A DNA stretch of 64,000 nucleotides from Escherichia coli. Its GTDB lineage: Bacteria; Pseudomonadota; Gammaproteobacteria; Enterobacterales; Enterobacteriaceae. The notes under the pieces are model-generated. The model was not told the DNA's origin, did no database searches, and saw only the letters and a list, made by a program, of their open reading frames with translations. The first letter of the stretch is position 1. Each line of letters begins with the position of its first letter. The position numbers and the translations under genes are program-made. Below are positions 34,195-34,906 of this stretch, piece by piece. The DNA lies in the NCBI RefSeq assembly GCF_048403405.1, contig NZ_CP183129.1. One strand, written 5' to 3'.

Positions 34195-34857
34195 TCATCG
34201 ACCATTTCGTTGTACTCGCATAATGCTCTCGGGAAATGAGTCGTCGACCATCCAGCTTGTGTTTGCATCCTGAAGTTGCTCTTTATCCCAGTCAGAGTAC
34301 GGAACTTTATCTCTGACGCGGCGAACATATTTTTTAGCCTCGAGTTGATACTGGTCTGCCGAATTAATGAACGAGAAATTCATACCGCCTTTATCCGCTT
34401 CTTTGGCCTGCGTCACCAGCGTTTTCAGTTCAGAGACTTTCTTCATTGCCGCATCAACATCAAACTTCTCTTGCGAAATCAGGTTATTAATTTGTTTCGC
34501 TGAAATCATGACTGCCAGAGAGTAGTAGTGGAATGTTTTCCCTTCTCTTTGTTCAATATTTTTCAGTTCCGCAAGCTGGCGCTTATCGTTAATTTCCTGA
34601 ATCGCCGCATGATAAGATTCTGCTACAGGTTCAAAGGCTTCAAGATTTTTTAAGAATGTCTGGTGCAGCGTTTTCCCTTTCGCAAACGCATCGTCTTTAT
34701 AATTTTCCTGGGTGTAATATTTATCCATTTCGTTAATGGTATTACCCAACGCCACGGCAGCATAAATATAACTTACCGCCACGCCATCAATAGGTTGCAG
34801 CGCAGGCGTTAACGCCACTACACGCATTTTGTTTATAAATAAAATAATAAAATTCAC
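34195..34857 (-). pseudogene. yiiG: yiiG (DUF3829 family) 3' portion; apparently 5'-truncated ORF of 220 aa with a non-native N-terminus
   Basis: C-terminal 200+ aa look like YiiG, but only 712 bp separate the fdhD stop from the yiiG stop; K-12 YiiG is recalled as about 351 aa; no signal peptide on the remaining ORF. Confidence 0.6.
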
Positions 34858-34863
34858 GAAATG

Positions 34864-34902
34864 AATAAGTCCTGCAATTTAATATATATCGCAGGACTTA
34901 TT
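34864..34902. terminator. Stem-loop at fdhD 3' end / yiiG-fragment junction
   Basis: AAGTCCTGC-(15 nt AT loop)-GCAGGACTT inverted repeat. Confidence 0.4.
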
Positions 34903-34906
34903 TTAA

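Follow-up and report, generated by a model that had tools for sequence, protein, structure and literature searches.

A 478-bp deletion between 8-bp direct repeats as the probable origin of a widespread Escherichia coli yiiG pseudogene

We analysed a 64,000-nucleotide stretch of Escherichia coli DNA (contig NZ_CP183129.1, assembly GCF_048403405.1; hereafter, the window), which keeps only the 3' 60% of yiiG between fdhD and frvR. Sequence comparisons indicate that this locus is very probably a non-functional yiiG pseudogene, which arose by a 478-bp deletion bounded by short direct repeats and acquired a frameshift later, a reading to which we give a probability of about 0.93. As a pseudogene, it is already known, ordinary and widespread. 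The existing PGAP annotation is silent on the mechanism (the 478-bp deletion and its 8-bp repeats) and on the population frequency, both of which are described here.

Results

Organization of the fdhD-frvR interval

The position of the yiiG remnant, downstream of fdhD and convergent with frvR, is conserved. It is shared with the intact genes of K-12 (351 aa, WP_001295677.1, an uncharacterised DUF3829 lipoprotein) and ST2747 (WP_025210070.1), as well as with that of a K-12-like genome (locus L002; 1056 nt, 351 aa). The length that the initial annotation gave for K-12 YiiG (351 aa, 1056 nt with the stop codon) is right, and the gene of K-12-type strains is not similarly short. The features of the interval are as follows.

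32372..34120 (+), frvR (ORF listing)
34176..34178 (-), native yiiG stop codon, out of frame with the ORF (alignment, translation)
34176..34818 (-), putative yiiG pseudogene remnant, native codons about 139-351 plus one extra base (PGAP extent identical)
34195..34857 (-), chance 220-aa ORF with a GTG start, ending at a frameshift-created stop
about 34231..34237 (-), +1 frameshift site, one extra base in the ...TCATTTCCCGAG... run (alignment to in-frame alleles)
34811..34818 (-), deletion junction, single remaining copy of GTGGCGTT (AACGCCAC on the + strand) (junction walk, repeat finder)
34819..34857 (-), 13 non-native codons, V/M-NFIILFINKMRV (aligned upstream sequences and direct reading)
34864..34902 (-), stem-loop just downstream of fdhD, dG -19.9 kcal/mol, z = -6.8
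34907..35740 (-), fdhD (ORF listing)

The sole long ORF between fdhD and frvR encodes 220 aa, and its translation starts (M/V)NFIILFINKMRV... or, in a longer read, (M/V)NFIILFINKMRVVALTPALQ.... Its coordinates and N-terminal sequence agree with the initial annotation, as do the 712 bp between the fdhD stop and the ORF stop when stop-inclusive ORF ends are taken. The ORF starts in former upstream DNA, crosses the deletion junction and continues in the yiiG frame; it owes its existence solely to the chance that the upstream DNA left in place has no stop in that frame. Alignment to intact alleles bears out its earlier description as a 3' fragment with a non-native N-terminus, since the 13 extra codons are intergenic sequence from the former upstream region, also found upstream of intact yiiG in K-12 and ST2747.

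The strong stem-loop from which the ORF had been said to start directly downstream was recovered, and it resembles a terminator of fdhD. It is conserved upstream of intact yiiG in K-12 and ST2747 and was therefore not created by the deletion. Direct reading of the sequence revealed no Shine-Dalgarno-like purine run before the GTG or the internal ATG of the ORF. No Rfam family was found within 34100-34950, and a scan for consensus promoters and terminators gave no match in the window. In the intact K-12-like locus it likewise gave none on the strand of yiiG, and it is therefore uninformative on promoter loss. The yiiG promoter has presumably been lost in the deletion allele. Between the convergent ends of frvR and yiiG, a near-perfect palindrome with a 12-bp stem, GTGTCGGATGCG-C-CGCATCCGACAC, occupies 34124..34148 and has the appearance of a REP element or of a terminator acting in both directions. 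The spacer adjoining it has 6 extra bases relative to K-12.

A deletion bounded by short direct repeats

Alignment to the intact K-12-like and ST2747 alleles revealed that 478 bp are missing from the yiiG locus in the window. The junction was located by an explicit prefix/suffix walk; MAFFT alone misplaced the gap. The window follows the K-12 upstream region up to ...AAAATGCGTGTAGTGGCGTT and then reads ...AACGCCTGCGCTGCAACC, which in K-12 lies 478 bp further on. In both intact alleles, two copies of the 8-bp direct repeat GTGGCGTT are 478 bp apart, a pair that the repeat finder recovered independently (family D1, spacing 478) and that is conserved in every intact allele examined. The lost segment is bounded by these repeats, one copy of which is left, and the joint is seamless with no inserted or foreign DNA, all of which are features of a microhomology deletion. 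The initial annotation, which had proposed a deletion of roughly 400 bp and a search for short repeats at its junction, was thus correct about the event and about where to look, though not about the size. The loss it described as the 5' half of yiiG amounts to about 40% of the coding sequence plus 56-64 bp upstream of the ATG (with the first 414-422 nt of the coding sequence gone, depending on the repeat copy counted).

Deletions between short direct repeats, by slippage or RecA-independent recombination, are classically described for lacI in E. coli. The yiiG deletion is like them in its perfect 8-bp repeat, its single retained copy and its clean joint, and it probably occurred via replication slippage or RecA-independent illegitimate recombination. 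The mechanism as such is not visible in sequence, and the GTGGCGTT pair has about 20 counterparts, direct-repeat pairs of 8 nt or longer within the same 1.3 kb.

Compared with intact yiiG of K-12 and ST2747, the window has lost the start codon and any ribosome-binding site in front of it, the lipobox-containing signal peptide, the linker rich in Pro and Ala, and DUF3829 up to about position 65. The 220-aa ORF still matches Pfam DUF3829 (PF12889; E = 8.3e-66, residues 13-210), where it covers model positions 65-271 of 285 and thus an incomplete domain, as against positions 2-285 of 285 for residues 73-349 of K-12 YiiG. An NCBIfam scan gave no match for the ORF and only a sub-threshold LppK signal-peptide match for intact YiiG. 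At the N-terminus of the ORF, MNFIILFINKMRV, there is no signal peptide with a lipobox cysteine, as had been noted earlier, and the native lipobox stretch MKRNLLSSAIIVAIMSLGLTGC lies in the deleted DNA. All five intact E. coli alleles that we translated contain the lipobox LTGC, and the divergent YiiG of AVS0536 contains ITGC.

Intact alleles and polarity of the change

As judged from the sequences compared, the long form of yiiG is ancestral, because its domain is complete, because AVS0536, from a divergent lineage (about 84% nucleotide identity), has a full-length yiiG of 347 aa, and because the repeat structure is of the deletion type. The converse polarity, in which the short form would be ancestral and the K-12 form an insertion, is ruled out by domain completeness, the divergent full-length orthologue and the repeat structure.

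Over its 3' 570 nt, the window differs from the K-12-like allele at 27 positions and from ST2747 at 5. The ST2747 gene (L012 6177..7232) has a 5' part of 422 nt that is 5.4-5.9% diverged from all other sampled intact alleles, which are 0.7-2% apart from each other in this part; its 3' part is 2-5% diverged. Alone among the sampled alleles, that of ST2747 may represent the haplotype that gave rise to the deletion allele, still in undeleted form. Intact alleles also vary in length by 15 bp (5 aa) within the Pro/Ala-rich linker, which yields proteins of 346 or 351 aa, for example in O121:H19 (L015 871..1911) versus L002 and L014, with record spans of 1655 or 1670 bp.

A second lesion and the decay of the remnant

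The C-terminus of the remnant is frameshifted relative to the intact genes. The window reads GACTCATTTCCCGAGAGC where in-frame alleles have GACTCATTT-CCGCGAGC (1296KP, ST2747) or GACTC-TTTCCCGAGAGC (K-12), the affected run being TCATTT-CCG in 1296KP and ST2747 and TC-TTTCCCG in K-12. This one-base insertion, 17 codons before the native stop, came after the deletion. It replaces the last 17 native residues (RALREYNEMVDDYNSLR) with ESIMRVQRNGR and moves the stop to 34195-34197. The ORF end at 34195, which the initial annotation took for the yiiG stop, is therefore a product of the frameshift; with the native stop at 34176-34178, the pseudogene spans 34176..34818, as in PGAP.

Besides being shorter than intact orthologues and lacking their start codon, the remnant has acquired further disabling lesions that differ among lineages. 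We compared 11 deletion alleles, namely the window and 10 fetched loci. The junction was identical in all 11, while the additional lesions varied:

Window, caps18b, GPEC1210: +1 frameshift
21AR0173, ATCC 11775: -1 frameshift in an A-run
GPEC1210: 3-bp insertion
Nissle 1917: 135-bp deletion between AAGGGAAAAC repeats
THO-008: nonsense codon and frameshift
1296KP, SJC33, AR_0077, EFF60: no secondary lesion

Decay is therefore slow, given that four of the 11 alleles are free of secondary lesions and that the 220-codon ORF is still open in the window. Pairwise dN/dS mostly reflects pre-deletion polymorphism, and singletons were counted in its place. Within the shared 570 nt, deletion alleles carry 9 nonsynonymous (one of them nonsense) and 2 synonymous singletons, against 1 and 2 in intact alleles, a contrast that involves only a handful of sites and does not reach statistical significance. 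The private changes of the window are 3 nonsynonymous (D to Y, E to K and A to T) and 0 synonymous. This singleton pattern is suggestive of decay. The long-term divergence between the remnant and intact alleles has a pN/pS of 0.13-0.18, which mostly predates the deletion or is independent of it.

Distribution and existing annotation

Using a 50-bp query centred on the junction (blastn, E <= 1e-7), which only the deletion allele can satisfy, we found the identical junction in 1467 of 5426 complete E. coli genomes, each time as one full-length match. This query replaced a 100-bp megablast query, which did not separate the alleles and joined two-piece matches. The 478-bp segment was present in 3916 of the 5426 genomes. 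Carriers of the junction include the type strain ATCC 11775 and an O25:H4 strain, and in the 100-bp megablast search CFT073 and Nissle 1917 each matched the junction once, at full length. The B2-type remnant of these four strains has the same 478-bp junction as the window and is annotated as a 'DUF3829 domain-containing protein' or 'YiiG family protein' pseudogene, the former label being the one that PGAP gives to the remnant in some junction carriers. At the B2 loci of Nissle 1917 and ATCC 11775, frvABXR and the last ~8 yiiG codons are gone and a carbohydrate-porin gene adjoins the remnant; the secondary lesions there are the 135-bp deletion and the -1 frameshift, respectively.

Six complete genomes, one of which is MS 69-1, match the window at 100% identity over 20 kb. 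Its identity to TUM1886 is 98.3-99.2% across aligned blocks, with the first 26 kb rearranged. The literature searched gave no usable information on the phylogroup of MS 69-1. PGAP annotates the same sequence, with the extent 34176..34818, as a 'YiiG family protein' pseudogene in MS 69-1 (NZ_CP146675.1, V9Z38_RS24175) and in TUM1886 (NZ_CP128970.1, QVM91_RS26490), flagged in both as frameshifted, incomplete and missing the N-terminus.

Neighbouring features of the window

Between rhaM and frvA, the window contains a 464-aa 'carbohydrate porin' gene at 27533..28927 (-). The porin and frvABXR (frv region 29404..34120) are both present in the window and in ST2747, K-12-like matches appear to be without the porin, and the B2 strains Nissle and ATCC 11775 keep the porin and are without frvABXR; three or more structural arrangements of the locus thus occur. 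The frvR gene of EFF60 (L019 1..832) is itself annotated as frameshifted, which, together with the loss of the frv operon in B2, suggests that the frv-yiiG neighbourhood is under weak constraint in general.

A 617-aa ORF at 42586..44439 (-), between yiiE and fabY, had no Pfam or NCBIfam match. In RefSeq relatives, this region is divided between a 'transposase' and a 'hypothetical protein' pseudogene that is truncated, and only 1061 of 5426 genomes contain 80% or more of the segment. The gene fdoG appears as two ORFs (35934..36521 and 36570..38984) because its in-frame TGA is a selenocysteine codon and not a disruption, with an Rfam SECIS_3 element at 36516..36574 (+) scoring 84 bits. Three Rfam sRNAs above their gathering scores are expected E. 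coli features unrelated to the yiiG remnant:

11385..11426 (+), ES036 (CssrF)
19232..19355 (-), STnc490
26217..26287 (-), naRNA4 (CssrE)

Discussion

Two readings other than a decaying pseudogene concern the nature of the short form itself. An assembly or sequencing artefact, that is, a collapse in this genome, would be favoured by the short direct repeats that flank the missing segment and by nothing else, and its probability is negligible: assembly collapse is excluded by the presence of the same junction in 1467 complete genomes, produced independently by many laboratories and on many platforms, and six complete genomes match the window without a difference over 20 kb. Alternatively, the truncated ORF could be expressed from the GTG or the internal ATG, through read-through from fdhD or a residual promoter, as a cytoplasmic piece of DUF3829 whose function would be either retained or new. 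Its 220 open codons, the four deletion alleles that stay in the native frame to the native stop and the low pN/pS would all fit such a product, although the last of these is mostly older than, or independent of, the deletion. We nevertheless regard expression as very unlikely, since neither candidate start follows a Shine-Dalgarno-like sequence, a strong hairpin separates fdhD from the ORF, and DUF3829 is truncated at both ends in the window. Furthermore, the frame has been broken differently from lineage to lineage, including by a nonsense codon and a 135-bp internal deletion, and the changes private to the window are all nonsynonymous, in addition to its frameshift. With no signal for export or lipidation, no ribosome-binding site and a truncated domain, any product would probably be unable to reach the envelope or to fold like YiiG, and the remnant is probably decaying neutrally.

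As for the origin of the deletion, the same junction might instead have arisen repeatedly, with the 8-bp pair acting as a deletion hotspot, possibly under selection for the loss of YiiG. In favour of recurrence, two or more divergent 3' haplotypes carry the deletion: the window, 1296KP and EFF60 differ from intact ST2747 at no more than 5 of 570 nt, while the B2 alleles are K-12-like further downstream. A private SNP 49 nt from the junction is common to EFF60, which is deleted, and ST2747, which is intact, and both repeat copies persist in all intact alleles examined. However, two polymorphic positions, located 18 nt and 45 nt downstream of the junction, are T and T in all 11 deletion alleles, as they are in ST2747, whereas intact K-12, O157, O121 and deer48 have A and C. 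The ST2747 states at both of these junction-proximal sites fit one origin on an ST2747-like haplotype. The K-12-like downstream part of the B2 alleles, as well as clear mosaics such as caps18b, indicate that recombination has reshuffled the locus, and with about 20 other pairs of at least 8 nt in the 1.3 kb, reuse of the GTGGCGTT pair by chance would be unexpected. A single origin with subsequent recombination thus appears clearly more likely than recurrence, which we consider improbable. The event would be old, with probably one origin on an ST2747-like haplotype and later shuffling by recombination across B2 and related lineages.

Selection for the loss of YiiG in the carrier lineages (B2 and relatives), possibly recurrent and with the 8-bp pair as a hotspot, is likewise doubtful. 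Many of these lineages are extraintestinal pathogens. In the literature, YiiG is described only as an uncharacterised lipoprotein. Mutations in the yiiG promoter and start codon have been recovered under antibiotic selection in a K-12-based screen (PMC11742677), which would also speak for recurrence, and a MarA ChIP site (gcgcgttatgctgac) has been mapped inside yiiG (PMC5684230). This site falls within the segment deleted in the window. The screen mutations and the MarA site are no more than hints that YiiG loss could have a phenotype. If the loss were indeed selected, an uncharacterised envelope lipoprotein would be tied to a fitness or antibiotic-tolerance trait.

For a yiiG pseudogene that arose by deletion and is decaying, the practical consequence is that annotators should not call the 220-aa ORF a gene. 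The locus would provide a clean worked example of a microhomology-flanked deletion that has become fixed in a large part of E. coli and is decaying through independent lesions, and the deletion allele may serve as a lineage marker. YiiG would be dispensable for about 27% of the strains sequenced, among them the type strain, CFT073, Nissle 1917 and an O25:H4 strain. The deletion allele is also a natural knockout for work on the function of DUF3829 lipoproteins.
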